The notes beneath the pieces were generated by a model. The model was not told the DNA's origin, ran no database searches, and saw only the letters and a list, made by a program, of their open reading frames with translations. A stretch of DNA of 64,000 nucleotides. It comes from Candidatus Poribacteria bacterium (GTDB lineage: Bacteria > Poribacteria > WGA-4E > WGA-3G). This document shows, in pieces, positions 12,457 through 34,844 of this stretch. The position numbers were made by a program, and so were the translations under genes. Numbering within the stretch: the stretch's first letter is position 1; each line of letters starts with the position of its first letter. The stretch covers positions 512,001-576,000 of the forward strand of contig CAXXLX010000001.1 in NCBI GenBank assembly GCA_963665235.2, in the 5' to 3' direction.

Positions 12457-15400
12457 TTAATCTGCTGTCGTCATGACAGGCTCTAATTGTCCGGTGCCCT
12501 CCTGTGTATCGGCACTTTCAGTTCGCCCGCGTTCATGGAATTCTGCTCGAACATCAACACTAAATGTCCGCCAAATCAGCAGCTGTTTCCGCAACAGATT
12601 GAGGAAGCGACGGTTCACCCGTTTCCAAGACGCTATCTCGCCACTTTCACGGTGAACATCTAAGGTAATTTGGTAAAGATCTTCCTCTTCTCCACCGACC
12701 GGTGAGGTAACAAATTGGATGGATTGACTGACCCCCAGGTCGTAAGGTGCCAACCAGACCCGCATACCGATTTGGTAGGAGTGTTCCTCTGATTGCGCGG
12801 CGTCTGTATCTGTAGCGACCGTGCTGAAAGTGACATTGTCAGTATAGAAGTCGCTTGCGGACTCATCAGCGTGTGCGTCGAAGTAGTCCCGCATGAACAC
12901 ATTTAAACCGAGTGCCTCCTCCTGTAGCACGGTAAACGGCAGGTTAAAGTGCCAAACATCGCCCTCCGGTTCCGGCAGTTTCCATTTCCGTTCAATATCC
13001 GGCACCGCCATGCGGGAAGCTTTCAGGGCGGGATAAAGCGTACTGAGCAGCACCACAATCATCACGATAACTGTGGCGACCACCGTTGACATTGAAGAGT
13101 AGTTCAACGTCAATCCGGCAAGCCAGCCGAAGTATACCAATGTTGTTGCAATAGCTTGTCCCATGAGATAACCGAGGACTGCCCCGACAATCGCATAGAC
13201 ACAAGCTTCAGCGAGGAAAAGAAACGCGATATGGACGGGGGCAAGCCCAACCGAACTGTAAATTCCGATTTCGCGCACGCGTTCATAAACCGCCCCGAGC
13301 ATCGTATTTAAGACAATCAGTGCAGCAATCAGAATCGGGACGAAGAGGTTGCCCATGCCGCTAAAACTGGTCATGCCGATACTGCTGTAAAGATAGGTGT
13401 CTTTGTCCCGTCCGACAAAGAAATCTAAAGCGATGCGGTTCATCAGCGGTGCCATAATGAGGTCAAGTTTATCAATTGACGTTAAGAGCGTTGGGTCGTC
13501 CGGTTGAGGCTCCATGTTGACAGCGACACTTCTCAGCGTTCCACCCTGATTCATGACCACCTGATATGGGAGCACGGCAATACTATCCGGGGTGAGGTGA
13601 AGATATTTCTGAAGTTCACCTTCAAGCGTTTCATCACCCGTTCCGCCTCGGCTCCGTTGCTGTTGCATCAATTGATAATCGACGGGGGTGAGTTCCTCCC
13701 CATCGTTATCTGTCAAATCCTTGAATCCGATGCCGAGTACACCGACGACAGTGAAATCCGCCCCGTAAACAGAGATTGTCGCTTTGCCCATGTCGCTTTC
13801 CGTAATTTTCAGGAGGTCCGCCATCCCTTTCGGAAGGATAATTGCGTAGGGCCACTCAGTCGGCCAAGTGTGTGCATCCACGCGATCGAACCATTTTCCG
13901 TATTGAAGATATCGATGGATACCGGTGACTGTGGGTTCCATCTCACTCATCCCGACGAGCATGTTTGCAGCAAAACTCGGGAGTTCCCCCGTAAGGGGAT
14001 GTGTGGGCGGGACTGGGTCGTGGGTGTTGCTGCTTCGCGTCAATTGCACAAACGATTGGTCCCCGGTTCCCGACGACTGATACCATGCGCGCGGAGCGAC
14101 GACGTTCTCCACGGTGAGGACCGGTTCTTCGTCAACGGTTTTGATAAACCCATCTTCTCTCAATGTAGCAATTGCGGCAGGAATGTCGACCGGTGTCTGT
14201 CCCTGCTTCTTGAGCCGTTCGTTTTTCTGTTCCAAAAGCCGTTGTAGTGCGTCAACCGTAATTTGTGTTTTCTGCATATCGTTGAGAATAGAGTTCAGCA
14301 CCGGTTCTTCAAGCGGCCGCCAGTATTGGTCGCGAATAAGCAAACCTGTATAGCGAGGCGTTACCTGCGGCAGACTCGTCCGGTTCGGGCGTAGGAACGT
14401 CCGCACCGATGTGAACGATATGACAGTAAACGTTAGGATAACGAGCGTGGCGCAGGTAAGGATAGTCCGTCCTTTGCGTTTGCGCATATTCGAGATACCG
14501 AGGCTAAACGCCGCTGCACTGGCACTCAGTCTGCCAACATCAGCTTTGTAAACCTTATGGTCCCCCTGCTGGCGGATTTTCTCAAGCTGCTCCTCGAATT
14601 TTCTTACAATAATGCTGATAACAATCACGGTCAGTGCAAGCACAACGAACGCAATCAGGATAATCACAGGCGTTGTCGTTATCTGGAACGCCGGATGTAC
14701 CTGGCTTAGGAAGAAGAAGACTAACAGAAAAATGCCAAAGGTTGCTATAATCTGTTTGTGAATGTTAGGGAAACCGAAGAGCAGCCGTTCCATAAAGTAT
14801 GCAAACGGCATCAAGAGCGCGAGATAGAACATAATCCCGTTCACTACATCGTTGCCTGTGCTTTTCACATCTGGATATGCCCGCGATTCGTACCCCCAGG
14901 CCGCCCGTGCTAATTTGAGGGCTTGTTGATAATCGTTTTGAAGGAGTGCCGTCTCCGCGCGGGTGAGGTATTCGTTAGCGAATTGGTGCAGTTTGTCAAG
15001 ACGGTCGCTACTGATACCGAACCGCTTGTAGAGCCGGGAGCGGTTTTCATCGAGCCACCACATATCGCGAACCACGACATAGGGTGTTAGGCGGATGCTA
15101 CCGTTTTCTCGGACGACGAATCCTTCTCCTGTATAGAGCGTCGGATTTTTCATACCGCTTTTTGTCGCTTTAATTAACAGCAACCGTTTGCCGATTTGCC
15201 CATAAGCCATCCCGACTTTAATACGTTTCTGCGGTTCGCTATAAACCAGGGCAATCGGTTCAGCTGCAGAGACACCCTCCTGTTGCCACGGCTTGGACAT
15301 ACCGAATTTCTCTGGCGGACTATCCGAGAGGGCATCGTATATCTCTAATTCTCGGAGGGTTCGGAGGTACCGTTGGTCGACCAGGTCGTAGATAGTCGTG

Positions 15401-18400
15401 GAAACGCAGGGAAACGTTACCACTCGGCAGCCACGTCTGCGGGTATTGATTGGAACTTTGTTAGGCAGCAGTTTCGCGCCGTAATTTCCGAGGTCGGGGG
15501 CATACACGATATCGCCTGAATCTGGGTCAAGGATATACGCCTCAACCTCTTGTGCCCCGCCTAGTCTGCGTGTTGCCCTACCTTCCATTGCAAGGCCTGC
15601 CACCTCAAAATTGCCCTTGTTATCGCCCATCGCGAAGAGGTCCCCGCGCACCCCCATCATTGTCTTGTGTTTCCGGCGGAGCGTCAAAATAGGATAGGAT
15701 ACCGGCTTATTCGGGAGTGCTGAATCGCGGGCATCAAATTCAACCACATCGCCGAAGAGGTTGCAATAGAAATTACCGACCCGTGCAGCGGTCGGCATTT
15801 GCGGGTCCCGCAAGGCCTGAATGAGTAAAGAGGCTAATGTTTTTGCTTGCTGATGCAGATTACCATCTTCGCGTAGGTCAACCCGTTCAATTGTATCCAG
15901 AGGCGTATCTGTCAGGACACGCGCATCTTCAATCGTTGCAAAGGCTATACCTGTTTTTCCGACTAACGTTGCCACTTCACTATCAAAGGCGATCTTTCCG
16001 GGGATGTAGGTTTTCCACGTCTTGCCGCCGCTAGCAGAAATGGCATTGACAAAGTTAGAGCTGCCCCCAAGTCCAACGATAGAAATTAGCGTTCTAATGT
16101 CCTCTATTTCATCTTCGGTGAAGGTATCCGGGTCTTCGTGCCGGAGCCTAAGCATTGCGGGGAGTTGTGCTATCATGCGGATGCTATTTTTTCGGCTTTT
16201 CTTTGCATTGCGGACATCGTTTCGGATAAACCGTTCCACCTCTTTACGGATGTAGTCCATATCCTTCAGCATATCTTCAGACGGTTCTCCGCGGTGTTGC
16301 CACTGTTCGAACTGCATTCTCATCAGGCGGCTGACTCCCCCTAATCCCGTTAATTTGCCGTAGTGTGCGCTGAGCAGGGTTTCAAGGGTTTTCCCTTCAA
16401 GTGCTTCCTTGTCCGAAATTTGGCTAGCGACACCCCATTGGCGGGCCATCACAGCTTGTCGGATTTGGTCATCCGTTGCTTGCCACAGTTTTCTCACACG
16501 GACACCGAAATCCGCATCCGCCGCATAGGCCGCTAATTTATTTCCGATGCTTGCAAATTCACGCCGCAGCACAAACTCGGGTTGCTGGTCATAGAACCAC
16601 CCTTTGTTAAAAACACCAAATTGGTTCGATTGCGAAGAGAGGTCGATGCTACAAAAGAGCGAGGTATAATAGCGGTTGAAAAGGTCTTGAAGGGCAATCG
16701 CAGCTTCAATCTGTGCAATTTTGTCGTTGTATTCCGCCTCACTAATCCGCACCATTTTTTCCACACGACTCTGAATGTTCCGAAGCCTTGCATTCCTCAA
16801 CGTCAACATGTTGTCCCGGAGGAGCCGTTTGGTCTCTGCATTGAGGTCGGATGTGAGCGTTGGTAACTGGATTATGAGATTTTTGAGCGCGTTCACATCT
16901 GCTGTGGCACCCTGCTTCACTGTCTGTAGCAGGTGTTCTTCTGCCAAATATGCGGATATAGCCGCGCGTGCTACTTCTGCCTGCTCAACTTCAGCACTTG
17001 ACAGGTAGCTCTCTAAAATAAGCCGTTCCTCCGCTAAATATCCACGGGCTAGCGTCGCGTGTGATTCAAGCAGTTTTTCAAGCCGTTCCTGTTCGAGGCG
17101 GGCGTTGCGAAGCGCAATTTCAAAGATGCCCTGCTTATCTCGGACGAGGTCAGCAATAAGGATGTCGGTACTTTCTCCGCCGCCCACTACATCTTTAGAC
17201 GTTCTCTCCTGAGCACGTTCTTCCGTTAAACGTTGCCGGAGTTGAGCGTTTATTGCGTCTATCCGTTCTCGAGAGTTTTTCGTAAGATAGCGGATTTGCA
17301 AATCGGGTGTCAAGGTATGTTCAGGCGTGTCGCGCAGCGCATTGATAGCCGCCTTAATTTGGTTAGCGGGCATAGCCGTATCGCCAAGAGGCTCCTGCTG
17401 ACTGTCGCCGGATAACTGCCGACGGCTAACGAGTGCCTGCTGTGCTTTCAAGAGGAGAGCTTGCTCTTGGGCGATACTCGCTTCACGCGACGCAGTTGCT
17501 GAGTTGCCTATAAGCCGGCGGGCATCTCTCGCTTTTTTCAGGTCGGGCAGATTCAGGTGCCGGTCTAGGATTTTATCCGGTGTCCACATCAACGCAAACT
17601 TTCGCGTGTCGCTCAGCTCCCAATTGGCAAGTGTTTTATTGAGTAGTTCTATGTCCGGTATCAATTCAGGGGGCAAATCTGTCGGTGTCGGTATCTCATA
17701 ACCATCATTTCGTTTCACTGGCAATAGGTATGATGTCCTTGGATGCGTTCCGTATCCATCGCTCAGTTTGCCCGCTTGAAGCTCGCGCTCCAGCTTGTCC
17801 ACTGCCCAGGTGTCCAATCGGGCGATAGGTAAGGCGATAGTCTCTATCAATTCACGTTGCGCGGTTCGGCTGCTGTCTAAGGCAGATGTACGGACCTGTG
17901 CAAGTCGTTGCACAATATGTCGGAGAAAGTGTGTTGTTTGGAGTGCCTCTTTTTCAAATCGGATAAGGTTTGCGTTACGTTTTGATTTTTCCTCTTCCGT
18001 GAATCCCTGCTTTTCCCGTTTCCTATTTCGTGTGACCCGTTTTTTCTGCTGTTCAGAGAAATCGCGTTGCGCTGCATGCAGCGACTCAATTTGTGAACGT
18101 GTCGTTGCCAAGGCTGTTAACGTTGTTGCCAGTGAGTCTATGTCCGCTTTCACGCCGTGTATATCGTGAAAGAAATCCGCAGACAGGTCGACGAGCGTGC
18201 TTCGGTCGATTGAGAGGAGCAGTTTGCGTCCTAATTCTTCGAATTCAATAATATCGTTGGATAACCCACGTCTGAGTCCTTGCAAAGTCGGTGTTCCTGG
18301 GGAATCGGTTGCGGACCCGACAATATCTTGTCCGATACCTTCCATGAATGCGCGCATGCCTGCTAAACCTTGGAAATGCGCGTCAACCGCCACAAAGAGG

Positions 18401-19902
18401 ACAGAACGTCCTGGACGGTATTCAGGTTTCTCGAACAAGCGTGCAAGTTCCATAAGCACCGCAATCCCGCAGGTTGGGTCAGCCCCAGGGGCAATTGCGG
18501 GAACAACAGACATGGAATCATAGTAAGCGGTGAGGACGACCAATTCATCCCGCAAGATAGGGTCACCGCCTTCAAGGAAACCTCGGATATTTTGTCCAAC
18601 CCGGCGTTCCCATGTCATTTTACCGCTGACACGCACGTTAACTTCGCTATTAGAGAGCCGTTCTTTTAGTGCGGCTGCATCCGATTTTGTAATCCAAAAC
18701 CGGGGAATGTTTGCGGGAACGGTGAGAAATTTGTTCTCTGCTTCACCACGGATAGTTGTTTCCGGTTCAATAAAAACAACTGCCGATGCTCCTAACATCG
18801 CGGCATTAATCCAACGTGTCCCGGAATTAAACGCTGTCAAGACTATCGCGCCCTTTGGTATGAAAATGTCGGCCTCGCTTGCAGCAATGAATTCACCGAC
18901 TTCGTCAATCTGTCCATCTTTATTGTTATCCAGTCCATCTGTCGCATCGCCCGGAATTTCGTCTGTCCAGCCGTTCGCGTTATTGTCAATGCCATCTGTT
19001 CCCCACCCTACGATTTCAGAGAGCAGCGGAATTTCGCCATATTCATCAACCATCCCATCTTCATCGTTATCAATACCATCAGATGCCTTCTGAAGGTGGC
19101 CGTTCAGAACATCGTCCGTAATACTCGCTTGTGTGACGCGATAACGTCTCGATAGGGTAGAGAGCGTATCCCCCACCTGAAGCGAATACCAGAAACCGCC
19201 CACATTGCTGCCGTTGAAATCTGATAGTTGTGCATCGTCAACGTCCAACAGCGGCCCCGTGAGCCCCCCTGTCGGTATAAAAACCGTGTCACCTACCCCG
19301 ATAGGAGTGGATAGGAAGCGGTTTCGTGAATTCTCCACGATGTCTGTCAAGGAGACAGCATAACTCTCCGCAATCTCCTCCAAAGTTTCACCCGCTTCAA
19401 CCGTATGTTTCACCCCATCCGCTATGAGAGATGTCCTGACGAGGTTGGGCCACAACGGTTTGAGCGTGAACGTCTCCAGCACTGTTCCATCAGGCGCAAG
19501 CACCTCCAGCGCACTATTCCCGTGGTCAATGGGAACGGTGATTGAAAACTCACGGCTCTCTACGTTCTGCAAACCGCTCTCGACAAAACGGTCAAAGACG
19601 TATTTGCTGCCACTAGCTGCTTGCGGGTAGCCTGTGACGCGACTGGAGAGACTCGCCATGCGAGCGAGGTCTTTCCGAATATTGCGAATGGAGAGTTCAC
19701 CACGAATTTGGATGGCAGCCGCCGATAAACCGAGGGCACGTTCTCCTTCCGCTGCATAGCAGCTCTTGGGAGTCGGGTTGAACGCAGAAAAACCCGACAA
19801 GAAAATTAATAGAGTTATAAGGACATATATCCGATTCATTAAACACCTTAAAGGCAAATATCGCCGTTTCTTGATAAAAAATTCTTTCATCTTAAAGTTC
19901 AC
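12457..19902 (-). CDS. Giant membrane protein: signal/TM, 2x LysM, DGxDN repeats, degenerate M28 peptidase fold, coiled region, TM block, MacB-periplasmic and FtsX permease domains
   Basis: HTVEAGETLEEIA and YSLQVGDTLSTLS (LysM); DGIDNDEDGMVDE-like x3; TAYYDS..PGAD..ELAR..RSVLF (M28); NMRKRKGRTILT and VYERVREIGIYSSVG..FLAEA (MacB/FtsX). True start uncertain. Confidence 0.85.
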   Translation of the reverse strand: MNFKMKEFFIKKRRYLPLRCLMNRIYVLITLLIFLSGFSAFNPTPKSCYAAEGERALGLSAAAIQIRGELSIRNIRKDLARMASLSSRVTGYPQAASGSKYVFDRFVESGLQNVESREFSITVPIDHGNSALEVLAPDGTVLETFTLKPLWPNLVRTSLIADGVKHTVEAGETLEEIAESYAVSLTDIVENSRNRFLSTPIGVGDTVFIPTGGLTGPLLDVDDAQLSDFNGSNVGGFWYSLQVGDTLSTLSRRYRVTQASITDDVLNGHLQKASDGIDNDEDGMVDEYGEIPLLSEIVGWGTDGIDNNANGWTDEIPGDATDGLDNNKDGQIDEVGEFIAASEADIFIPKGAIVLTAFNSGTRWINAAMLGASAVVFIEPETTIRGEAENKFLTVPANIPRFWITKSDAAALKERLSNSEVNVRVSGKMTWERRVGQNIRGFLEGGDPILRDELVVLTAYYDSMSVVPAIAPGADPTCGIAVLMELARLFEKPEYRPGRSVLFVAVDAHFQGLAGMRAFMEGIGQDIVGSATDSPGTPTLQGLRRGLSNDIIEFEELGRKLLLSIDRSTLVDLSADFFHDIHGVKADIDSLATTLTALATTRSQIESLHAAQRDFSEQQKKRVTRNRKREKQGFTEEEKSKRNANLIRFEKEALQTTHFLRHIVQRLAQVRTSALDSSRTAQRELIETIALPIARLDTWAVDKLERELQAGKLSDGYGTHPRTSYLLPVKRNDGYEIPTPTDLPPELIPDIELLNKTLANWELSDTRKFALMWTPDKILDRHLNLPDLKKARDARRLIGNSATASREASIAQEQALLLKAQQALVSRRQLSGDSQQEPLGDTAMPANQIKAAINALRDTPEHTLTPDLQIRYLTKNSRERIDAINAQLRQRLTEERAQERTSKDVVGGGESTDILIADLVRDKQGIFEIALRNARLEQERLEKLLESHATLARGYLAEERLILESYLSSAEVEQAEVARAAISAYLAEEHLLQTVKQGATADVNALKNLIIQLPTLTSDLNAETKRLLRDNMLTLRNARLRNIQSRVEKMVRISEAEYNDKIAQIEAAIALQDLFNRYYTSLFCSIDLSSQSNQFGVFNKGWFYDQQPEFVLRREFASIGNKLAAYAADADFGVRVRKLWQATDDQIRQAVMARQWGVASQISDKEALEGKTLETLLSAHYGKLTGLGGVSRLMRMQFEQWQHRGEPSEDMLKDMDYIRKEVERFIRNDVRNAKKSRKNSIRMIAQLPAMLRLRHEDPDTFTEDEIEDIRTLISIVGLGGSSNFVNAISASGGKTWKTYIPGKIAFDSEVATLVGKTGIAFATIEDARVLTDTPLDTIERVDLREDGNLHQQAKTLASLLIQALRDPQMPTAARVGNFYCNLFGDVVEFDARDSALPNKPVSYPILTLRRKHKTMMGVRGDLFAMGDNKGNFEVAGLAMEGRATRRLGGAQEVEAYILDPDSGDIVYAPDLGNYGAKLLPNKVPINTRRRGCRVVTFPCVSTTIYDLVDQRYLRTLRELEIYDALSDSPPEKFGMSKPWQQEGVSAAEPIALVYSEPQKRIKVGMAYGQIGKRLLLIKATKSGMKNPTLYTGEGFVVRENGSIRLTPYVVVRDMWWLDENRSRLYKRFGISSDRLDKLHQFANEYLTRAETALLQNDYQQALKLARAAWGYESRAYPDVKSTGNDVVNGIMFYLALLMPFAYFMERLLFGFPNIHKQIIATFGIFLLVFFFLSQVHPAFQITTTPVIILIAFVVLALTVIVISIIVRKFEEQLEKIRQQGDHKVYKADVGRLSASAAAFSLGISNMRKRKGRTILTCATLVILTFTVISFTSVRTFLRPNRTSLPQVTPRYTGLLIRDQYWRPLEEPVLNSILNDMQKTQITVDALQRLLEQKNERLKKQGQTPVDIPAAIATLREDGFIKTVDEEPVLTVENVVAPRAWYQSSGTGDQSFVQLTRSSNTHDPVPPTHPLTGELPSFAANMLVGMSEMEPTVTGIHRYLQYGKWFDRVDAHTWPTEWPYAIILPKGMADLLKITESDMGKATISVYGADFTVVGVLGIGFKDLTDNDGEELTPVDYQLMQQQRSRGGTGDETLEGELQKYLHLTPDSIAVLPYQVVMNQGGTLRSVAVNMEPQPDDPTLLTSIDKLDLIMAPLMNRIALDFFVGRDKDTYLYSSIGMTSFSGMGNLFVPILIAALIVLNTMLGAVYERVREIGIYSSVGLAPVHIAFLFLAEACVYAIVGAVLGYLMGQAIATTLVYFGWLAGLTLNYSSMSTVVATVIVMIVVLLSTLYPALKASRMAVPDIERKWKLPEPEGDVWHFNLPFTVLQEEALGLNVFMRDYFDAHADESASDFYTDNVTFSTVATDTDAAQSEEHSYQIGMRVWLAPYDLGVSQSIQFVTSPVGGEEEDLYQITLDVHRESGEIASWKRVNRRFLNLLRKQLLIWRTFSVDVRAEFHERGRTESADTQEGTGQLEPVMTTAD

Positions 19903-20480
19903 ATTTTTATTATACCAAAATTCTTAAGTTTTTGTCAACAAAAAAAAATAAAAAACGGATGTGTCAACATTTTGTACTTATGTGTCAGTCTACCCTATAG
20001 CTCTCCACCGTTTGTAAAAAATGACGTTGTGATATTTGGGGCATGAGCTTAGTCGGGGCCTACAACGGTGGCATACATCCAAAAAACGGATACGTCATTT
20101 TGGGTTTCCACGCCTCCATTCCTATATCTATCCTTTGGGCCTCCAAAAAGTTTACACATCCCCAAAAAACGTTCCCCCTTCCCACCTATTCGTTTGACAA
20201 AAATTTTACATATCAAAAAAAAATTTGCTTTTTAACGTTTTTTAGGTTAAAATATATTTAACGTTTTTATTCTGTTTCATCTTTTTTATCGGACCTGTGC
20301 TATCGGTTCGCTTAAAAAGTTGAAAGAAAAAAACACGGTTCACGATACACAGACAGATTCCAACTGTCAACGTATCCTGCTTAGCCTGATAATAAGAGCG
20401 AGTTTCTGCTCGCGATTTTTGTGTCAAAATTTTCTAAACGTATACACTGCTTTATTTACAACGAATGAAAGGAAACAGTT

Positions 20481-20873
20481 ATGAGTAAAGATGAAACCGT
20501 CTCTCGGATAAAAAAACGGCGGCTTGAACTAAGCATGACACAGACCCAGTTAGCGAAAATCGCAAACTTAACACCTGCAGCCATCTCACAGTTCGAGTCT
20601 GGGACCCGCAAACCCTCTTTTAACACGCTCGCTGGCCTGTCCGAGGCCCTAAAGGTAACAACAGATTATCTTCTCGGTAAAGAGGAATTGCGATACGATG
20701 ACCTTCTTGCGGACCCGAAGGTTAGTCTCATGTTTAGAGGCATGATGGAATTCACAGAGCGCGATAAGGAAACCCTCTATGAGTTCTATAAATTCCTCAA
20801 GACACAAGCGGATGATGCTACATCAGATGCCACATCAGATGCTACATCAAGTGAAGGTTCATCGGGTCAATAA
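20481..20873 (+). CDS. XRE-family HTH transcriptional regulator
   Basis: IKKRRLELSMTQTQLAKIANLTPAAISQFESGTRKPS; AAAGGA RBS; stop codon lies inside the downstream element. Confidence 0.92.
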   Translation: MSKDETVSRIKKRRLELSMTQTQLAKIANLTPAAISQFESGTRKPSFNTLAGLSEALKVTTDYLLGKEELRYDDLLADPKVSLMFRGMMEFTERDKETLYEFYKFLKTQADDATSDATSDATSSEGSSGQ

Positions 20874-21140
20874 CCCCCAGCTAAAGCATGGGGGCTTGTC
20901 CCTGATGTCCGCCAAGGCTATCACAGGGACGAGGGTAACTTGTTGACTACCGTAATATATCGCAGATGCTGGACGTGGCAGTCCAAAGTATGGTTATCTA
21001 AAAAGGTGGCTTGTTTGTGGTAAAAGCAAGTTGCTGAAGGGTGCTCCCCAAGCCTTAACCCACTACGCTTATGTGATCGGGATGGGGCAATATATACCCG
21101 TGTAAGCGGAGAGCCCGAGAGGGTCCTTACCTGCTTTCTC
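20866..21140 (+). ncRNA. Putative omega-RNA/HEARO-like scaffold (3' end approximate)
   Basis: Three-way junction (closing stem plus hairpins CCCCCAG/TGGGGG and CTTGTCCCTG/CAGGGACGAG); loop sequence CCCC can pseudoknot with GGGG at ~21084. Confidence 0.65.
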
Positions 21141-21432
21141 AAAGAGACCGTGTCAGGTCGGCTCGGAGATGGTGACAGCACTGAAGAGCAGGCTGTTTGC
21201 CTGAATACTGAAAAGAAGCAGCACACTCGGAGAGGATCGCCCACGGGATTGTGGCGAAAAAACAACCCGAAGGAGGAAAACGAATGAACTTCGTTCATTT
21301 GTTTTCCCTCCCCCCCTTTGGGGTAATCTAAAACCGAAAAAGAGGCGGTGTTAGGAGGAAAGCTAATGAACTTCGTTCATTCGTTTTCCCTCCCCCGCAT
21401 AAATGCTAGGGGTCTCCACACCGAATATTTTG
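20866..21432 (+). mobile_element. Non-autonomous IS200/IS605-superfamily element with IscB-type omega-RNA (HEARO-like) and no ORF
   Basis: Starts GTCAATAACCCCCAGCTAAAGCATGGGGGCTTG; GTCAATAA pairs with TTGTTGAC (20940-20947); GGGTGCTCCCCAAGCC motif; ends TTCCCTCCCCCGCATAAATGCTAGGGGTCTCCAC..; followed by ATGA. Confidence 0.75.
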
Positions 21433-22356
21433 ATGATGCGTAACCGATTGCACTCTGCGAAGGATAGCCCCGCCGCCACGGCGTGGGCCCTCCTTCGCGA
21501 CCTCGATATACAAGAATTTCCAATCGAACCGAGGCACATCGCAAGTGCCCTCGGTATAGTCCTATGGGAACGTGAATTTGCGGGTAATTATGATGGATGC
21601 CTCATGCGCGTTGGAGATGCGTGGGGTATTCTCATCAACGCGCAAATTCAGTCCGAAGCCCGGCGGAACTTTACAATCGCCCATGAAATTGGGCATTACC
21701 AATTGGAACGCGATACGGAAACCCGCTCCTGTTCCCTAGATGAACGGTTAAACGCCGTAACTGCGGAACAGCGTGAGGACACTGAAGAGACATCCTCACA
21801 GAAGCGGGCGCATCTGCTTAGTGAACAGCGCGCCAATCAGTTTGCCGTTGAGTTGCTAATGCCAACCCCTATGTTTTTGGCGGACGCAGCAGGGCTGACA
21901 GAGGTCGGATTGCCAGCCATTACTGCCCTTGCTGAGCAGTACGGCACATCTTTGACGAGTACCGGCATTCATTACACCCGCCTCTCCGATTTGGTTTGCG
22001 CAATAGTGTTCTCGGAAGCTGGAATTATTCGTCACTTCGCCTACTCCGATGCATTTCGCGAGAATAGGAACTGCTATATCGCTATCGGCCAGACGCTTCA
22101 TCCTGAATCGCTCGCTTATCGGTTAGCGAATGAAACCCGTAAGGAGCCACTCATAGGACGGGTCCCGCTCAGCTGTTGGTGCCGACCTAATCAGCGTCGT
22201 AGGCATAGTAATAAGTATTCCGCCAAGGGGGCCGTAACCACAGAAATTGTAGAACATTCACTACGAATTCCGAGTACGAACCGCGTGATAACGTTTATCC
22301 ATTTTCCTATTGAGGGTGTGATGCCATCTCACAGTGTCATAGTACCCACCACCTAA
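21433..22356 (+). CDS. ImmA/IrrE-family metallo-endopeptidase
   Basis: RRNFTIAHEIGHY (HExxH), EQRANQFAVELLMP, YGTSLTS; start taken at ATGATG directly after the inserted element. Confidence 0.9.
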   Translation: MMRNRLHSAKDSPAATAWALLRDLDIQEFPIEPRHIASALGIVLWEREFAGNYDGCLMRVGDAWGILINAQIQSEARRNFTIAHEIGHYQLERDTETRSCSLDERLNAVTAEQREDTEETSSQKRAHLLSEQRANQFAVELLMPTPMFLADAAGLTEVGLPAITALAEQYGTSLTSTGIHYTRLSDLVCAIVFSEAGIIRHFAYSDAFRENRNCYIAIGQTLHPESLAYRLANETRKEPLIGRVPLSCWCRPNQRRRHSNKYSAKGAVTTEIVEHSLRIPSTNRVITFIHFPIEGVMPSHSVIVPTT

Positions 22357-22452: not shown

Positions 22453-23496
22453 TCACGGGAGCAGACAGATTTTTCCGAAATTTTGACGCGCCTCCAAAAG
22501 ACGATGCGCTTCAGCTGCCTGCTGTAAAGGCAACGTGCGGTCAATGATAGGACACAACCGCTCCTGTTCTAAGAGGCGAACGAGGGTGCGAAGCTCGGTG
22601 ACGGTCCCCAATGCCGACCCCATGAGCGTCAGCTGTTTTTGATACATTTTCCGGATGTCGATTTGCCCTATGTTGCCTGTTGTAACACCGCACGAAACGA
22701 GTCTGCCGTTTTTCGCAAGGCTGCGGATGCTCTGTTCCCAGGTCGCAGCCCCGACATGTTCAAGAACGACATCAACCCCCCGCCCATCTGTTTCGGCTAG
22801 GATAACCTCTGAAAAATTTACGTCGGCATAGTTAATGGTAACGTCTGCGCCGAATTCCTTGGCGCGTGCCAATTTTGCATCTGTGCTAGCAGTCGCAAAG
22901 ATGCGCGCCCCGACTAGCTTGGCGATTTGTAAGCCGGCACTTCCGACACTTCCCCCAGCACCGAGTATCAGTACATCATCACCTGCGCGGAGCTGTGCGC
23001 GCGTGATAAGCATGTGCCATGCGGTGAGATAAGCGATAGGCAGGGCAGCAGCGTCAACAAACGACACGTTATCACCTATCCGAATTGCGTTTTTGGCTGG
23101 GGCCTTAACGAACGCAGCATACCCGCCATCTATCTGGAAGCCGAGCAGGTGTTGCGTCCCACACAGATTTTCGTACCCGTTGATGCAGTCGCTACAAACA
23201 CCACACGGGATACAAGGAGCGAGGAGTACCCGGTCCCCGATAGTGAGTTCCGAATGTGTGCCAGAAATTTCAGCGATTTCACCTGCAATGTCGGAACCGA
23301 GGATATGCGGTGCGCCTGTCTCTGATAATTTCTGTTTTATTTCAGGCCGGTCGCGCCGCGCGTGTATATCGAGATAGTTAACAGCGCACGTTCTAACTTT
23401 AACAAGGATTTCATCACGGTCAAGGGTCGGTTCAGCTACGTCTTGATACTGTAAAACGTCAATCCCGCCCTGTTCTGTAAACGCCAGTGCTTTCAT
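22453..23496 (-). CDS. Zinc-binding alcohol dehydrogenase / quinone oxidoreductase (MDR family)
   Basis: MKAL start; PHILGSDIAG, CGVCSDC..C, GAGGSVG, NFGKICL. Confidence 0.9.
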   Translation of the reverse strand: MKALAFTEQGGIDVLQYQDVAEPTLDRDEILVKVRTCAVNYLDIHARRDRPEIKQKLSETGAPHILGSDIAGEIAEISGTHSELTIGDRVLLAPCIPCGVCSDCINGYENLCGTQHLLGFQIDGGYAAFVKAPAKNAIRIGDNVSFVDAAALPIAYLTAWHMLITRAQLRAGDDVLILGAGGSVGSAGLQIAKLVGARIFATASTDAKLARAKEFGADVTINYADVNFSEVILAETDGRGVDVVLEHVGAATWEQSIRSLAKNGRLVSCGVTTGNIGQIDIRKMYQKQLTLMGSALGTVTELRTLVRLLEQERLCPIIDRTLPLQQAAEAHRLLEARQNFGKICLLP

Positions 23497-24025
23497 TACA
23501 AATCCAAATTGTAGGAGGTGTATGCCATACACTAACCTAAGTTGCCACATAGTAGCATAATCTTCCAGATTGTGCATATTTGTGGGCAAATTGGAAGTGA
23601 ACGGGACAAATATTAGCTCATTATCGGCATATTTTCAGTAAAGACGGTGTTTCCAGGTCTAAAAACTTATAAGTAGCAACTTGGGTTACACTATCAAACC
23701 GCTAAATATTTAACCATTATATCGAGATAGTTAACAGCGCACGTTCTAACTTTAACAAGGATTTCATCACGGTCAAGGGTCGGTTCAGCTACGTCTTGAT
23801 ACTGTAAAACGTCAATCCCGCCCTGTTCTGTAAACGCCAGTGCTTTCATTACAAATCCAAATTGTAGGAGGTGTATGCCATACACTAACCTAAGTTGCCA
23901 CATAGTAGCATAATCTTCCAGATTGTGCATATTTGTGGGCAAATTGGAAGTGAACGGGACAAATATTAGCTCATTATCGGCATATTTTCAGTAAAGACGG
24001 TGTTTCCAGGTCTAAAAACTTATAA

Positions 24026-24321
24026 TACCATTTTTATTAATTATTCTATCATTACCGGTTGTTAGAAATGAAACGGAGAACGGAAGACCCAAACTAAAAG
24101 TTTATGCTACAAGGAGGCACAAACTGGAAGTTTATGCTACAAGGAGGCACAAACTGGAAGTTTATGCTACAAGGAGGCACAAACTGGAAGTTTATGCTAC
24201 AAGGAGGCACAAACTGGAAGTTTATGCTACAAGGAGGCACAAACTGGAAGTTTATGCTACAAGGAGGCACAAACTGGAAGTTTATGCTACAAGAAAGAGA
24301 CATTTTCAATTAGAAATGGTA
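24026..24321. mobile_element. MITE, 296 bp, TIR TACCATTT...AAATGGTA, 3-bp TSD TAA
   Basis: Empty site AAAAACTTA-TAA-GTAGC is visible at ~23661-23677; filled site has TAA on both sides. Confidence 0.85.
24091..24293. repeat. 30-bp tandem repeat x7 (AAACTGGAAGTTTATGCTACAAGGAGGCAC)
   Basis: Direct reading; first and last units imperfect; unit contains the REP-like palindrome. Confidence 0.95.
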
Positions 24322-24361
24322 TAAGTAGCAACTTGGGTTACACTATCAAACCGCTAAATAT

Positions 24362-25207
24362 TTAACCATACGCGCCATGACTGAGAAATCCGAGCAGCCG
24401 TCGGAGGCGCGGGGATGCGTCCCGATATACAGATTCCGGCATCGTATAATTTACGAACGGATAATATTTATGCCCTACTAATCGGCGCGCATAAGTCACC
24501 TGTGTGATATATCGGGTGCGTTGACTTTGATTCGGACCGCCGCGGTGCCACACCTGATTGTTGAACATAATGACACTTCCCGCTTTGCCGAGGTTATATT
24601 GAATCTTTTCTTCCCATTGCGTTCCCTCCATCGGATTTGGCGGCGATGCACCGAAAAGATGTGACCCGGGAATAACCTCTGTCCCGCCATGTTCAATCTC
24701 CGTAACATCGGTGAGATAGTAGTTCGCAGTAAAGAGCAGTACAGGAAGTTTGACGTTCGTCGGCGGTGCACCTTCTGTGACAATATAGTGCGGGGAGTCG
24801 TCTTGATGCCAAGTCGTAATGCCGCCGCCGGGGCGCGTTTGAAACGAGTTGTTGTGAATGACGTGGCATTCTCCCACAATAAGTGCCTCGGCAAACGAGA
24901 CAATCGGTTCAATTTCAAACAAACGCAGGTTTGCCGGGCTGTGTTCAAACATCCGATGACAGAGATGCATAGTTGATGTGCGGTTTCCGCCGTTCAAACC
25001 GTTCGGATTATTCTCAAGTGACCATTCTAAATCCTGCCGAAGTTCATCGCAGTGAGCGGGGGTCAACACATTTTCAAGGAATAGGCAGCCATCCCGGTGG
25101 AACGTCTCCACCCATTCTTGGATTCTTTCAGGAGTGACGTTCTGTTCTGACAAGTAACGCGTTTCAGACACGAAGCACCTCTTTATTATGGAAACCCATA
25201 CAGACAA
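24362..25207 (-). CDS. Phytanoyl-CoA dioxygenase (PhyH) family Fe/2OG dioxygenase
   Basis: FHRDG, WHQD, GGTEVIPGSH, WHRGGPN..R; start may be further downstream. Confidence 0.9.
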   Translation of the reverse strand: MSVWVSIIKRCFVSETRYLSEQNVTPERIQEWVETFHRDGCLFLENVLTPAHCDELRQDLEWSLENNPNGLNGGNRTSTMHLCHRMFEHSPANLRLFEIEPIVSFAEALIVGECHVIHNNSFQTRPGGGITTWHQDDSPHYIVTEGAPPTNVKLPVLLFTANYYLTDVTEIEHGGTEVIPGSHLFGASPPNPMEGTQWEEKIQYNLGKAGSVIMFNNQVWHRGGPNQSQRTRYITQVTYARRLVGHKYYPFVNYTMPESVYRDASPRLRRLLGFLSHGAYG

Positions 25208-25589: not shown

Positions 25590-25658
25590 AGTTCCTCCAA
25601 TAGATTAAGGTAGGAGCGAGCTCCCGCTCGCGATTAACCTGTGTGATACTCACAACGC

Positions 25659-26948
25659 CTAAAGGCGTGTGCTTCTTTGCCTCCTCAGGGGAGGCTTACT
25701 TGATTTGAGCCCCGAAAACGGTGACCACTTATCAAGTCGACGCAGGTGCGGATTAAACCGAACACCTGTGGGGGATACCACAGCCCCGACTACAGGGTTG
25801 AAAAGCCAGCCCTGATACTTTGTCAAAATGTTGCTTGCCCACACAACGTCTCTGTGTCCGTTCCAACCGCATTTAGAACAGTGGTAATTTCTGCCACTCG
25901 GCTTCTTGCGATTACGGCAACTCGGACAAGTTTGTGAGGTATAGGCTTCGTTTTCTGTCTCAACGTTGATGCCTACCGCTTTTGCTTTGTAGGTTATCAG
26001 GTGTTCGATTTTTGAGAAAGACCACTGGTGCAACTTCTGATTGGCGTTTTTGCTATAGTTAATAGATTGTCGTATGTGCTTAATGTCACCAATGACAATC
26101 GTTTCTATCCTTCGCTCTCGGCAGGAAGAAACAAATCGAGACGTGATTTTGTGACGCATATCACGTAATTGATTAGCAAGCGATGCAAGCGTTCTATCTT
26201 TAGCACGTTTTAGTTTTTTCCAACGCTTGCTATAACGTTTGCACCTTGATAGTTTTTGGTTGATTTTCGCCTTAAACTTTTCGCAATACCTTGCTTTACT
26301 TCGGATTTCGCGGCCGTTATAAATCTCGGAATTAAGTCCATCAAAAGCAACAATCGGATGTATTTCGCCCATGTCCACAGCAACCACAGGACCCGCTTTT
26401 ACTTTTGTCCGCTTCGGTTGCGTTACGTAGGTTGCGTGGAACTCGTATTGTTTCGTGGTTCGGTTATAGACAAGTGAGACTCCAGCGGGCACTTTCTTAT
26501 GGAACTTCTTATCAATCTTAATCCAGAGTGGGTCTCTGCCTTTGCCCAGAGAAAGCCGTAGCTTACCGTGCTTGTAGGTGATACCTGTAGCACGCCACGT
26601 GAAAGTATGGAACTTATGCTTTGGAGGCTTTGCTTTGGGATTAGAAGCTTTATTAGAAAAGAAAGAACGCCTTGCACCGCAATAGTCGTCTATGATTGCC
26701 TGAACGCTATGGGCATGGCAGGGATACCGCTTGAATTTGAGATATGCCTTAAGTCCACCGTCTGAAATCCAAAAGCCTTTTCGCCTGTGTGTTTTGAACG
26801 CAAGCGATACCGTTTTTGAATAGATACGACCGCCAAGCCGATTCATCTCGTCTAACTGCTCTGTAGGCTTGGCGGTTCCTATGATATAAGTGAGATAATC
26901 ATTTTTGGACCTAGACATTCTTTTCATCCTCAATATACTTTTTGACAA
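25659..26948 (-). CDS. tnpB: TnpB RNA-guided endonuclease
   Basis: VAVDMG, IVIGD, NEAYTSQTCPSC, CSKC, HRDVV. Confidence 0.93.
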   Translation of the reverse strand: MSKSILRMKRMSRSKNDYLTYIIGTAKPTEQLDEMNRLGGRIYSKTVSLAFKTHRRKGFWISDGGLKAYLKFKRYPCHAHSVQAIIDDYCGARRSFFSNKASNPKAKPPKHKFHTFTWRATGITYKHGKLRLSLGKGRDPLWIKIDKKFHKKVPAGVSLVYNRTTKQYEFHATYVTQPKRTKVKAGPVVAVDMGEIHPIVAFDGLNSEIYNGREIRSKARYCEKFKAKINQKLSRCKRYSKRWKKLKRAKDRTLASLANQLRDMRHKITSRFVSSCRERRIETIVIGDIKHIRQSINYSKNANQKLHQWSFSKIEHLITYKAKAVGINVETENEAYTSQTCPSCRNRKKPSGRNYHCSKCGWNGHRDVVWASNILTKYQGWLFNPVVGAVVSPTGVRFNPHLRRLDKWSPFSGLKSSKPPLRRQRSTRL

Positions 26949-27324
26949 CTTCTAAGGATACACACCCAACCGACGATATGAATTTGGAACGCGTCCACAG
27001 AGAGGGTAAACCGGATTTTAGGTGTGGAAATCCCTCACGCAAGACTTTAGAGGTGAAACCTTTTAGCATCCAAACTGTCCGAGTGACTGGCACTTTCGGA
27101 TTGGTTTCTATGATAAGATGCACAGGGTCTTCCATCACCTCACTGGCACACACCTTAAAATCTAAATCGGTTTGTTTGGAGCATATCAGATGATGCAACC
27201 GTTCTTGTATAGGTTCGGTTAAAACCTTGCGCCGATACTTCGGACACCAGATAACAGGATACTGACAACTATAGACAAGGTTCGTATCAGAATACCAACT
27301 CTTTTCTGGGTTCTTAATAAACAT
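26911..27324 (-). CDS. tnpA: IS200-type Y1 transposase (HUH motif altered)
   Basis: IWCPKYRRKVL, EDPVHL (canonical DHVH), LKGFTS, SLWTRS, VKKYI. Confidence 0.9.
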   Translation of the reverse strand: MFIKNPEKSWYSDTNLVYSCQYPVIWCPKYRRKVLTEPIQERLHHLICSKQTDLDFKVCASEVMEDPVHLIIETNPKVPVTRTVWMLKGFTSKVLREGFPHLKSGLPSLWTRSKFISSVGCVSLEVVKKYIEDEKNV

Positions 27325-32393: not shown

Positions 32394-32462
32394 AAGTCAT
32401 AGTTCAATTTTCCTATATATGCATCACACTGCGAATTCATGTTGTAGTGATACTCACAACGC

Positions 32463-33752
32463 CTAAAGGCGTGTGCTTCTTTGCCTCCTCAGGGGAGGCT
32501 TACTTGATTTGAGCCCCGAAAACGGGGACCACTTATCAAGTCGACGCAGGTGCGGATTAAACCGAACACCTGTGGGGGATACCACAGCCCCGACTACAGG
32601 GTTGAAAAGCCAGCCCTGATACTTTGTCAAAATGTTGCTTGCCCACACAACGTCTCTGTGTCCGTTCCAACCGCATTTAGAACAGTGGTAATTTCTGCCA
32701 CTCGGCTTCTTGCGATTACGGCAACTCGGACAAGTTTGTGAGGTATAGGCTTCGTTTTCTGTCTCAACGTTGATGCCTACCGCTTTTGCTTTGTAGGTTA
32801 TCAGGTGTTCGATTTTTGAGAAAGACCACTGGTGCAACTTCTGATTGGCGTTTTTGCTATAGTTAATAGATTGTCGTATGTGCTTAATGTCACCAATGAC
32901 AATCGTTTCTATCCTTCGCTCTCGGCAGGAAGAAACAAATCGAGACGTGATTTTGTGACGCATATCACGTAATTGATTAGCAAGCGATGCAAGCGTTCTA
33001 TCTTTAGCACGTTTTAGTTTTTTCCAACGCTTGCTATAACGTTTGCACCTTGATAGTTTTTGGTTGATTTTCGCCTTAAACTTTTCGCAATACCTTGCTT
33101 TACTTCGGATTTCGCGGCCGTTATAAATCTCGGAATTAAGTCCATCAAAAGCAACAATCGGATGTATTTCGCCCATGTCCACAGCAACCACAGTACCCGC
33201 TTTTACTTTTGTCCGCTTCGGTTGCGTTACGTAGGTTGCGTGGAACTCGTATTGTTTCGTGGTTCGGTTATAGACAAGTGAGACTTCAGCGGGCACTTTC
33301 TTATGGAACTTCTTATCAATCTTAATCCAGAGTGGGTCTCTGCCTTTGCCCAGAGAAAGCCGTAGCTTACCGTGCTTGTAGGTGATACCTGTAGCACGCC
33401 ACGTGAAAGTATGGAACTTATGCTTTGGAGGCTTTGCTTTGGGATTAGAAGCTTTATTAGAAAAGAAAGAACGCCTTGCACCGCAATAGTCGTCTATGAT
33501 TGCCTGAACGCTATGGGCATGGCAGGGATACCGCTTGAATTTGAGATATGCCTTAAGTCCACCGTCTGAAATCCAAAAGCCTTTTCGCCTGTGTGTTTTG
33601 AACGCAAGCGATACCGTTTTTGAATAGATACGACCGCCAAGCCGATTCATCTCGTCTAACTGCTCTGTAGGCTTGGCGGTTCCTATGATATAAGTGAGAT
33701 AATCATTTTTGGACCTAGACATTCTTTTCATCCTCAATATACTTTTTGACAA
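32463..33752 (-). CDS. tnpB: TnpB RNA-guided endonuclease
   Basis: Same motifs as copy 1. Confidence 0.93.
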   Translation of the reverse strand: MSKSILRMKRMSRSKNDYLTYIIGTAKPTEQLDEMNRLGGRIYSKTVSLAFKTHRRKGFWISDGGLKAYLKFKRYPCHAHSVQAIIDDYCGARRSFFSNKASNPKAKPPKHKFHTFTWRATGITYKHGKLRLSLGKGRDPLWIKIDKKFHKKVPAEVSLVYNRTTKQYEFHATYVTQPKRTKVKAGTVVAVDMGEIHPIVAFDGLNSEIYNGREIRSKARYCEKFKAKINQKLSRCKRYSKRWKKLKRAKDRTLASLANQLRDMRHKITSRFVSSCRERRIETIVIGDIKHIRQSINYSKNANQKLHQWSFSKIEHLITYKAKAVGINVETENEAYTSQTCPSCRNRKKPSGRNYHCSKCGWNGHRDVVWASNILTKYQGWLFNPVVGAVVSPTGVRFNPHLRRLDKWSPFSGLKSSKPPLRRQRSTRL

Positions 33753-34128
33753 CTTCTAAGGATACACACCCAACCGACGATATGAATTTGGAACGCGTCC
33801 ACAGAGAGGGTAAACCGGATTTTAGGTGTGGAAATCCCTCACGCAAGACTTTAGAGGTGAAACCTTTTAGCATCCAAACTGTCCGAGTGACTGGCACTTT
33901 CGGATTGGTTTCTATGATAAGATGCACAGGGTCTTCCATCACCTCACTGGCACACACCTTAAAATCTAAATCGGTTTGTTTGGAGCATATCAGCTGATGC
34001 AACCGTTCTTGTATAGGTTCGGTTAAAACCTTGCGCCGATACTTCGGACACCAGATAACAGGATACTGACAACTATAGACAAGGTTCGTATCAGAATACC
34101 AACTCTTTTCTGGGTTCTTAATAAACAT
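33715..34128 (-). CDS. tnpA: IS200-type Y1 transposase (HUH motif altered)
   Basis: Same motifs as copy 1. Confidence 0.9.
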   Translation of the reverse strand: MFIKNPEKSWYSDTNLVYSCQYPVIWCPKYRRKVLTEPIQERLHQLICSKQTDLDFKVCASEVMEDPVHLIIETNPKVPVTRTVWMLKGFTSKVLREGFPHLKSGLPSLWTRSKFISSVGCVSLEVVKKYIEDEKNV

Positions 34129-34346: not shown

Positions 34347-34844
34347 CAAGTCTTCCGCTACAAAACCCCCGTGCTTTAGCTGGGGGATGTAGTAGCGGCG
34401 CATGAGCTAAAATTTTAATTTGACTTTTGCATTAAAATGTGGTATAATATATATATCATCAGTGGTTCGGATTACCACCTTCAACGCCACCAATGTTGAA
34501 GTTCCGAACCTCAACCTATGGTAGGGTTGTGTGCTGATGTTCTGGCGATACCCAGTCAATATCCACATTTTTGTGCAATGCTTTCGGTATCCAAAAGACG
34601 GGTCATGCTGCATTGGATACCAAAGCACTGATTCACAAGCATAAAGAAGGTGCGAAGCACGAGGGCAGGGCATTGTCCTTTGAGTTAGGGGCAGTAAGAC
34701 TTGGAACAGCCCAAGCATCTCCGTTGAGGATGTCCTCGGTGGGACCTCGGACGTTCACACGTCTGAAAACCACAATCCAATAGCTAACGCGTAGCGGAAC
34801 TTTTTAAAAGAATCTCCCTTGCTTTAGCTGGGAGAGTATGTCAA
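34347..34844 (+). mobile_element. Non-autonomous IS605-type element (PATE-like) with promoter and TnpB-type right-end RNA, no intact ORF
   Basis: TTAT|CAAG.. left end with hairpin CCCCCGTGCTTTAGCTGGGGG; right end GAATCTCCCTTGCTTTAGCTGGGAGAGTATGTCAA; internal GGCAGGGCATTGTCC..GTAAGAC..CCGTTGA typical of tnpB 3' ends. Confidence 0.78.
34420..34448 (+). promoter_or_regulatory. Near-consensus sigma70 promoter
   Basis: TTGACT-17 nt-TATAAT with extended TG. Confidence 0.75.

Follow-up and report, generated by a model that had tools for sequence, protein, structure and literature searches.

A gene-less IS200/IS605-type element, very probably of the IsrB branch, at the XRE-ImmA junction of a Candidatus Poribacteria bacterium

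The stretch analysed here, hereafter the window, is 64,000 nucleotides (nt) of a Candidatus Poribacteria bacterium (assembly GCA_963665235.2, contig CAXXLX010000001.1, positions 512,001 to 576,000), and window coordinates are used unless stated otherwise. Between an XRE-family gene and an ImmA/IrrE-type metallopeptidase gene lies a discrete 567-bp insertion (20866-21432) with ends of the IS200/IS605 type. With high confidence we assign this insertion to the gene-less, non-autonomous members of the IS200/IS605 superfamily, in the branch whose full-length members carry isrB. That the RNA of this particular copy is used by IsrB in trans is a finer call, towards which we lean only slightly; taking identity and use in trans together, we consider this the probable best explanation of the locus. 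An earlier note on this DNA had described a protein-less IscB-type omega-RNA element at 20866..21432, and the element itself, protein-less, omega-RNA-bearing and of IS200/IS605 type, was borne out by alignments of its ends, by the lack of a coding remnant and by homology to isrB leaders. The features of the locus are given below, with the basis of each in brackets.

20481..20873, + strand: XRE-family helix-turn-helix gene (list of open reading frames, ORFs; Pfam HTH_3, 2e-15)
20846..20865, + strand: putative guide-equivalent flank, 20 nt directly 5' of the left end (IscB/IsrB omega-RNA geometry as described in the available parts of published papers)
20866..21432, + strand: whole non-autonomous element, 567 bp (end alignments, genome copies, empty allele)
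20866..21131, + strand: predicted IsrB-type omega-RNA scaffold, element 1-266 (partial HEARO match, isrB-leader homology, covariation)
20873..20894, + strand: subterminal left-end hairpin ACCCCCAGCTAAAGCATGGGGG (identical 25-mer elsewhere, compensatory changes in relatives)
20996..21038, + strand: stem-loop of ~42 nt, found in gene-less copies and not in isrB-linked leaders (alignment of 16 left ends; helix 10)
21127..21270, + strand: 3' RNA domain specific to gene-less copies (covariation, covariance-model matches, no Rfam match)
21181..21210, + strand: private insertion of this copy, a small hairpin CAGGC..GCCTG inside the 3' domain (matches a scattered 30-mer)
21271..21314, + strand: private insertion with a 44-nt hairpin repeat of family D6, the first of two copies (alignment to sister copies)
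21353..21396, + strand: private insertion in which the 44-nt hairpin repeat stands a second time, with 93% identity to its first copy (same alignment)
21383..21432, + strand: right end, containing a subterminal hairpin (21392-21412) and closing in ..CCGAATATTTTG (25 copies aligned)
21433..21436, + strand: ATGA, the target-site motif or target-adjacent motif (TAM), unduplicated; also the ImmA start codon plus one base (22/25 right ends)
21433..22356, + strand: ImmA/IrrE-type metallopeptidase gene (ORF list; Pfam Peptidase_M78, 1.8e-13; orthologue alignment)

The left end begins at 20866 with GTCAATAACCCCC, the opening of the insert being GTCAATAACCCCCAGCTAAAGCATGGGGG, and the right end finishes at 21432 after a second hairpin. 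Both subterminal hairpins lie on the + strand without terminal inverted repeats, as in IS200/IS605 elements; they are conserved in 16 left-end and 25 right-end copies, respectively, and both covary among relatives. The one at 20873..20894 is the first stem-loop of the predicted RNA and, in DNA, probably the recognition hairpin for TnpA. The 567 bases of the element match 62 places in its own genome (G000). Among 16 left-end copies in this genome, 15 begin with GTCA(A/G)TAACCCCC and one with CTCA, and their 5' flanks are all unrelated. ATGA stands directly after 22 of 25 right ends (the exceptions being ATTG, AGGA and ATAC), in keeping with the earlier note, which had proposed a genome-wide search for ends flanked by this motif; in relatives it follows 7 of 10 right ends as cut and 9 of 10 once two cuts are shifted by 1-2 nt.

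At the locus itself, the XRE stop is now the TAA at 20871-20873, within the first 8 bases of the element, and the protein terminates in ..SSGQ rather than ..SSDDA, its orthologues terminating in ..GSEDAE. On the other side, the ATGATG after 21432 is the ImmA start, the start codon directly adjoining the right end of the element, and ImmA would gain 10 codons from an in-frame ATG that lies within the element at 21403. Excision of 20866-21432 in silico yields ..TCG GAT GAT GCG TAA, overlapping ATGATGCGTAAC. The XRE-ImmA junction is uninterrupted in all five orthologous loci inspected in relatives (~70-74% identical), where the XRE stop comes 11 nt after the ImmA ATG, as in GGATGCCGAGTAA, and this equals the architecture restored by precise removal. 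In addition, among public runs aligned to 20400-21900, an 856-nt metatranscriptome contig (RNA library X8) joins 20864 to 21432 and omits 567 bases, the joint being ambiguous by one base (20864/5 to 21432/3). This contig differs from the window by 15 differences and 30 gap letters on the XRE side and by 4 differences on the ImmA side, and it is a natural empty allele of a close relative. As exactly 567 bases are omitted, the insertion entailed no target duplication. The alignments of the ends, the copies in the genome, the orthologous junctions and the empty allele agree, and the boundaries of the element are exact, as the earlier note had argued from the coupled XRE/ImmA junction that its removal rebuilds. 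The same note had read the upstream flank plus ATGA as the empty allele, a sequence that we have now found in nature in the 856-nt contig: 20846..20865 followed by ATGA is the empty-allele sequence. With an assumed guide length of 20 nt, this flank would serve as the guide of the omega RNA if it were co-transcribed with the scaffold. For the host, the insertion carries a cost, as a translationally coupled junction is broken and the ImmA start is deprived of its upstream context. We also observed that the C-terminal tail of XRE (20780-20865) contains a short in-frame repeat, DATS three times, which is missing from the orthologues, and the 30 gap letters of the empty-allele contig fall here.

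A profile built from the gene-less copies found seven complete short copies in the genome (450-567 bp), one 5'-truncated short copy and ~23 long elements of 1.2-1.4 kb. The gene-less copies occupy different sites, beside unrelated genes, and the ends of the long elements are related to theirs. Each long element has one ORF of 350-372 aa starting MFVPVKT..QLMPMHAARARKL. For a representative protein (359 aa), Pfam returned the RRXRR/PLMP domain (PF14239, 3.7e-30) alone, and among solved structures the best match is IsrB (8DMB, E 1.4e-25, residues 3-299), the alignments to IscB chains being limited to residues 4-119. No HNH domain was found in the Pfam scan of this one representative, the remaining proteins being judged by ORF length; the genome holds 23 RRXRR matches, all in frames of at most 403 aa. 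These comparisons identify the family nuclease as IsrB, a nickase with PLMP and RuvC and without HNH, and not as IscB. With such a partner, the expected chemistry would be nicking rather than double-strand cleavage. The proposal in the earlier note of a partner in trans thus stands in so far as genes for a nuclease and for Y1 TnpA do lie elsewhere in the genome, and fails in the identity of the nuclease; its suggested search for a cognate iscB returned the ~23 isrB elements instead. That note also missed the lack of HNH in the cognate protein, the second structured domain (element ~262-405) and the three private insertions.

Within the element, the ORF list contains no PLMP/RuvC/HNH-type frame. 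A decayed isrB frame was considered and ruled out, as tblastn with five IsrB proteins of the genome recovered only the final 7-8 codons, which overlap the right-end hairpin. No transposase occurs in any element of the isrB and gene-less family, and the genome has 13 Y1_Tnp matches. Three units with TnpA and TnpB (C1:31461-33239, C1:3153045-3154820 and C2:338531-340313; TnpA 134-137 aa, TnpB 403-432 aa; target ATAA) bear the same end hairpin, CCCCCAGCTAAAGC.TGGGGG, and finish in ..CTTG before ATAA, compared with ..TTTG before ATGA in the element; moreover, element positions 8-32 recur as an identical 25-mer at the end of the IS605 unit at C2:338531. The TnpAs of these three units are candidate transposases in trans, a compatibility suggested by DNA signals alone. 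We note that the guide RNAs of TnpB and IsrB would come from the same transposon end, on opposite strands.

The right ends of the family often adjoin start codons. Of 34 right ends in the family, 17 directly adjoin the ATG of a frame of at least 100 codons; among 14,708 sampled ATGA sites the share is 17.4%. Two of the 34 boundaries were wrongly guessed and are scored as misses in this count. Through a further in-frame ATG, which the right end supplies 10 codons upstream, called ORFs acquire MLGVSTPNILM- extensions. ATGA as the target, together with the survival of insertions that spare ORFs, accounts for the bias towards start codons.

The assignment of the RNA was approached through Rfam, homology and covariation. 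In the whole window, Rfam at gathering thresholds gave no match, and at E-value thresholds it gave a weak HEARO match and chance-level microRNA and snoRNA hits only. The HEARO (RF02033) match covers 20866-20991 with 29.4 bits (gathering threshold 83, local E 6e-4); genome-wide, HEARO matches 16 left ends at 21.6-35 bits, all below 83. Eight homologous loci searched against Rfam gave HEARO (38 bits for one relative) and, outside the element only, the unrelated sbrA. The match is suggestive and falls short of membership in HEARO; the assignment of the RNA rests on homology to isrB leaders and on covariation. Element positions 1 to ~240 align with the leaders of isrB genes in the genome as far as the ribosome-binding site, the first 130 nt being 89% identical to four isrB leaders; the closest are at C1:120253, 1443734 and 1658347. 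The earlier note had proposed a HEARO/omega-RNA fold, of which the omega-RNA part is upheld by this homology and by strong covariation, and the HEARO part is not, at 29.4 bits against 83.

In the scaffold, a stem GUCAAUAA/UUGUUGAC closes the structure, which further contains the end hairpin, nested stems and, close to the 3' end of the scaffold, a hairpin with a GNRA cap. In an alignment of 14 gene-less copies from nine genomes (five from this genome and nine from eight relatives), 91.2% of cells are paired in the consensus fold, compared with 36-44% in slid controls; 55 of 97 pairs have changed on both sides, and none of 500 shuffles reached any of five measures. Helices 1-12 and 14 of this fold covary. 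The copy in the window retains 89 of the 97 consensus pairs, five of its eight misfits falling in a poorly aligned subfamily-specific stem, and its RNA folds better than 100 of 100 shuffles (z -2.95). Loop complementarities GCCA/UGGC and CCCC/GGGG occur at the places of the IsrB adaptor and nexus pseudoknots, where stem-loops are named by analogy with the available text of PMC9581776; they are 94.6% paired in invariant columns, which speaks neither for nor against these contacts. Helix 13 of the first consensus fold, pairing GGG with a far-downstream CCC, is probably spurious, as it competes with the nexus-type contact and with the pseudoknot of the 3' domain.

Between scaffold and right end, the gene-less copies have in common ~120 nt (21127-21270; element ~262-405) that are conserved in relatives. 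Among the isrB-bearing elements of the genome this domain has no counterpart, nor does it contain a coding remnant; the gene-less copies are not recent deletion products. A conserved small ORF was likewise ruled out, the 45-aa frame at 21150-21287 being private to this copy by eye, with sister copies reaching a stop within a few codons. The domain consists of long-range helices, a covarying hairpin and a further hairpin, the loop of which reaches across an A-rich linker to pair with CCCG in an H-type pseudoknot. Its cells are 93.7% paired, compared with 31-50% when slid, and 17 of 34 pairs have changed on both sides: one hairpin stem alternates between CGGAG/CUUCG and ACAGAA/UUCUGU types, and in the pseudoknot, where the terminal-hairpin loop pairs with CCCG past an AAAAAAC linker, the variants CGUG/CAUG and CGAG/CUUG preserve the pairing. 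No Rfam family matched the domain, including known ribozyme, riboswitch and intron models.

A covariance model of the 3' domain (R1) finds eight places in this genome and, in a sample of 151 genomes from the order, matches in 41, this genome included. All matches fall in one bacterial family (40 of 103 genomes besides the present one; none of 47 in the other three families), with at least 24 in one genome and 20 in another. At 30 loci that were fetched, the domain always lies within a short gene-less element, 23 of them complete (435-606 bp) and seven contig-cut or partial; one short gene-less copy in a relative (G009) is without it. The gene-less elements seem to form a separate lineage that has spread within a single bacterial family. 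The 3' domain would most likely give the effector-less RNA a defined, nuclease-resistant 3' end, or aid its folding or loading. The stronger proposal, that it is a new RNA module letting an omega RNA live without a nuclease gene, through maturation or protection of the 3' end (the pseudoknot with its A-rich strand) or through preferential loading into IsrB, is put forward tentatively. If preferential loading were true, the mini-elements would be hyperparasites of isrB transposons and not mere deletion products.

In the same sample of 151 genomes, RRXRR genes occur in 36 of 41 genomes with the 3' domain and in 48 of 110 without it, and all 25 genomes with two or more copies of the domain have RRXRR genes. 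The five genomes without RRXRR, all of which were rechecked, hold one gene-less copy each. This co-occurrence with IsrB is supportive and not decisive.

Standalone omega RNAs are reportedly to be credited to Altae-Tran and co-workers in 2021. The concept of a gene-less guide cassette used in trans is already published. Standalone omega RNAs exist and act in trans (PMC10691335), and their work with IscB is mentioned in the available part of PMC9581776; palindrome-associated transposable elements (PATEs) often encode omega RNAs that need action in trans (Meers et al., bioRxiv 10.1101/2023.03.14.532601). Like the standalone omega RNAs, as far as PMC10691335 and PMC9581776 describe them, the present element is a mobilised locus without nuclease or transposase, in a genome with compatible effector loci (here eight gene-less copies beside ~23 isrB elements) and with the insertion flank as its presumed guide. 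Unlike them, the tested case in those accounts being IscB, it is of the IsrB type, and it has a conserved ~120-nt 3' domain that is missing from the isrB-linked RNAs of the same genome. With PATEs it shares subterminal hairpins at both ends, the lack of an ORF, presumed mobilisation by TnpA and nuclease protection in trans, and a target motif that is also the TAM; from the PATEs reported, which are acted on by TnpB in a Geobacillus genome, it differs in that its scaffold is of the IsrB type and lies at the opposite end in the sense of the nuclease, and in the extra RNA domain.

Another close comparison is the Desulfovirgula thermocuniculi IsrB omega RNA (8DMB), whose scaffold is described in PMC9581776 as 262 nt long, with a GUCAA-plus-hairpin opening, two pseudoknots and a GNRA-capped hairpin near its end. 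The element resembles it in GUCAA plus a hairpin ending in ..GGCUUG, in the nested stems, in candidate adaptor and nexus loop contacts, in the GNRA-capped hairpin near the 3' end and in a TAM of the form NTGA. The resemblance in sequence is confined to the first ~35 nt and was judged by eye, with no computed alignment; and whereas the D. thermocuniculi scaffold ends after its last stem-loops at 262 nt, the RNA here would continue for ~120 nt. The IsrB TAM is given in PMC9581776 as NTGA/TTGA, with ATGA targets also nicked, and the ATGA after the element fits this motif. As to HEARO, the 5' closing stem and the first hairpins align to the model, in contrast to the scores (21.6-38 bits, threshold 83) and to the associated protein, which is without HNH. 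An IsrB-type gene-less lineage with its own 3' RNA domain, or its spread through a bacterial family, is not described in the literature searched. Nor do effector-less IsrB RNAs with an additional 3' domain appear in that literature, supplements that might list IsrB-type standalone RNAs lying outside its scope. Gene-less guide-RNA transposons offer the simplest test of whether OMEGA nucleases (short for obligate mobile element-guided activity) serve whole populations of elements in trans, and the present locus is unusually clean, with exact boundaries, a natural empty allele, a known TAM, and intact isrB and tnpA genes in the same genome. The 3' domain could reveal how a long guide RNA is matured or stabilised outside an mRNA context, and could aid compact tools based on the IsrB nickase.

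Starting from the observed anatomy, boundaries, mobility, empty allele and shared fold, and from the isrB and tnpA genes present in trans, we propose the following course of events. A Y1 TnpA encoded elsewhere would have put the element in as single-stranded DNA immediately 5' of ATGA, without target duplication, splitting the overlapping stop/start junction of the XRE-ImmA pair. Its cargo would be an IsrB-type scaffold of ~265 nt running from the left end, a 3' domain of ~120 nt in place of the isrB ORF, and the right-end hairpin. As no promoter- or terminator-like site was found on its + strand and as it lies in sense orientation within the XRE-ImmA unit, the element would be transcribed within the operon RNA, under the XRE promoter. 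The scaffold, together with ~20 nt of upstream XRE sequence (20846-20865), may then be bound by IsrB from an intact isrB element; this complex would recognise the 20-mer followed by the ATGA TAM, that is, the empty allele, and nick there, and, once TnpA has excised the element, the nick may bias repair towards copying it back by recombination. The steps that we infer are transcription, loading of the RNA into IsrB, nicking and homing, together with the function of the 3' domain.

Several observations weigh against this proposal. With no promoter- or terminator-like site found on the + strand within the element, expression relies on read-through. The RNA-library data are assembled contigs, which are uninformative on expression, RNA ends and strand and may include DNA; contig depth over the element exceeds that of its flanks in the RNA libraries but equally in a DNA run, the family is multi-copy, contig depth does not serve to rank parts, and we draw nothing from it, while the uncovered parts of the stretch in runs X9 and X10 likewise count as no evidence. 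Homing after cleavage has been demonstrated for TnpB and IscB only, IsrB being a nickase (bioRxiv 10.1101/2023.03.14.532601 and PMC13565253, in the parts available). The HEARO score and the limited HNH scan, both given above, belong here as well, as does the co-occurrence with RRXRR genes, which is counted over related genomes that are not independent and over two element types that depend on the same transposase. Lastly, identity of this copy to its nearest sisters is only 82%, and of its three private insertions one falls within the 3' domain, so that the copy may be old and inactive. These last points are also those that favour an inert fossil, in which the family is or was a mobile guide-RNA mini-transposon and this copy has decayed, yields no working RNA and merely disrupts the XRE-ImmA junction. 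Decay would further agree with the want of an own promoter, with the 24-30 nt inserted within the 3' domain and with the single copies in five genomes without an RRXRR gene, which indicate that copies can persist without the nuclease. We nevertheless regard it as unlikely, as the copy retains 89 of 97 consensus pairs, with most misfits in the poorly aligned stem; its two ends and ATGA are intact; and its insertions spare the scaffold, falling in the loop of a hairpin and in the spacer that precedes the right end.

A different emphasis would make the 3' domain the functional core, either as an RNA that cleaves or protects itself and thereby matures the omega RNA outside the context of an isrB mRNA, or as a decoy that outcompetes the nuclease's own RNA for IsrB, as a parasite would. 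The extensive covariation, pseudoknot helix included, the restriction of the domain to gene-less elements among the 30 loci, its presence in 40 of 103 family genomes with high copy numbers in some, and the lack of a matching Rfam family all agree with such a role; we hold it doubtful all the same, given that no sequence or structure match to a known ribozyme or protective element was found and that the G009 copy persists without the domain, which is thus not indispensable. Recruitment by the host, with the insertion co-opted to uncouple ImmA translation from XRE or to control it and retained for that purpose, would account for the exact position at the coupled junction, in place of the ImmA ribosome-binding region, and would suit a family that so often adjoins start codons (17 of 34 right ends, compared with 17% of random ATGA sites). 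It is very improbable: a close relative has the empty allele, none of the five orthologues inspected has the insertion, the same element stands at unrelated genes, and the start-codon bias is accounted for by the ATGA target and the survival of ORF-sparing insertions. Least probable of all is an IscB-type element, HNH-bearing and of the HEARO kind, which might be suggested by the HEARO model, as it weakly matches the present copy and a further 15 left ends (21.6-35 bits); all 16 matches lie under 83 bits, every RRXRR frame is of at most 403 aa with a representative that is without HNH, and the best solved relative is IsrB, IscB chains aligning to the N-terminal 115 residues only. We retain a gene-less member of the isrB branch, with use of its RNA by IsrB in trans, as the preferred explanation.

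Two kinds of short repeat touch the element. A hairpin repeat of ~40 nt (GGAGGAAA..GAATGAACTTCGTTCATT..TTTCCCTCC) sits twice in this copy, at 21271-21314 and 21353-21396, and is also found close to the leader or right end of some isrB elements (C1:1659591-1659675, C1:3021432-3021517 and C1:2522014-2522048); it resembles a small hairpin module capable of moving or recombining. A 30-mer with a short hairpin (CAGGCTGTTTGCCTG) occurs at 21181-21210 and at ~17 other places in the genome with 93-100% identity, distant from isrB genes, for example at C1:235286, 1095944, 1096020, 3104137 and 3104378, C2:165191 and C3:3492.

Elsewhere in the window, two Y1 TnpA genes on the - strand, at 26926-27276 and 33730-34080, lie 6804 bp apart, the second being followed by a 317-aa ORF. 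Both are inside an apparent large direct duplication, 25643-25942 being 100% identical to 32447-32746 over at least 300 nt, and only one end hairpin of the isrB-family type lies near them (~34366-34387, - strand). A 300-nt perfect direct repeat at 23365 and 23718 (region 23365-24369) duplicates the N-terminus of a 378-aa dehydrogenase-like ORF (22453-23589, - strand) as an 82-aa fragment (23694-23942); about seven 30-nt units in tandem (24085-24294) come next, and a perfect repeat of 50 nt brackets them (23668 and 24320). Just upstream of the XRE gene, 12457-19902 on the - strand encodes a 2481-aa ORF that has a signal-like segment at its N-terminus, regions that are peptidase-like or repetitive, and permease-like helices at the C-terminus.

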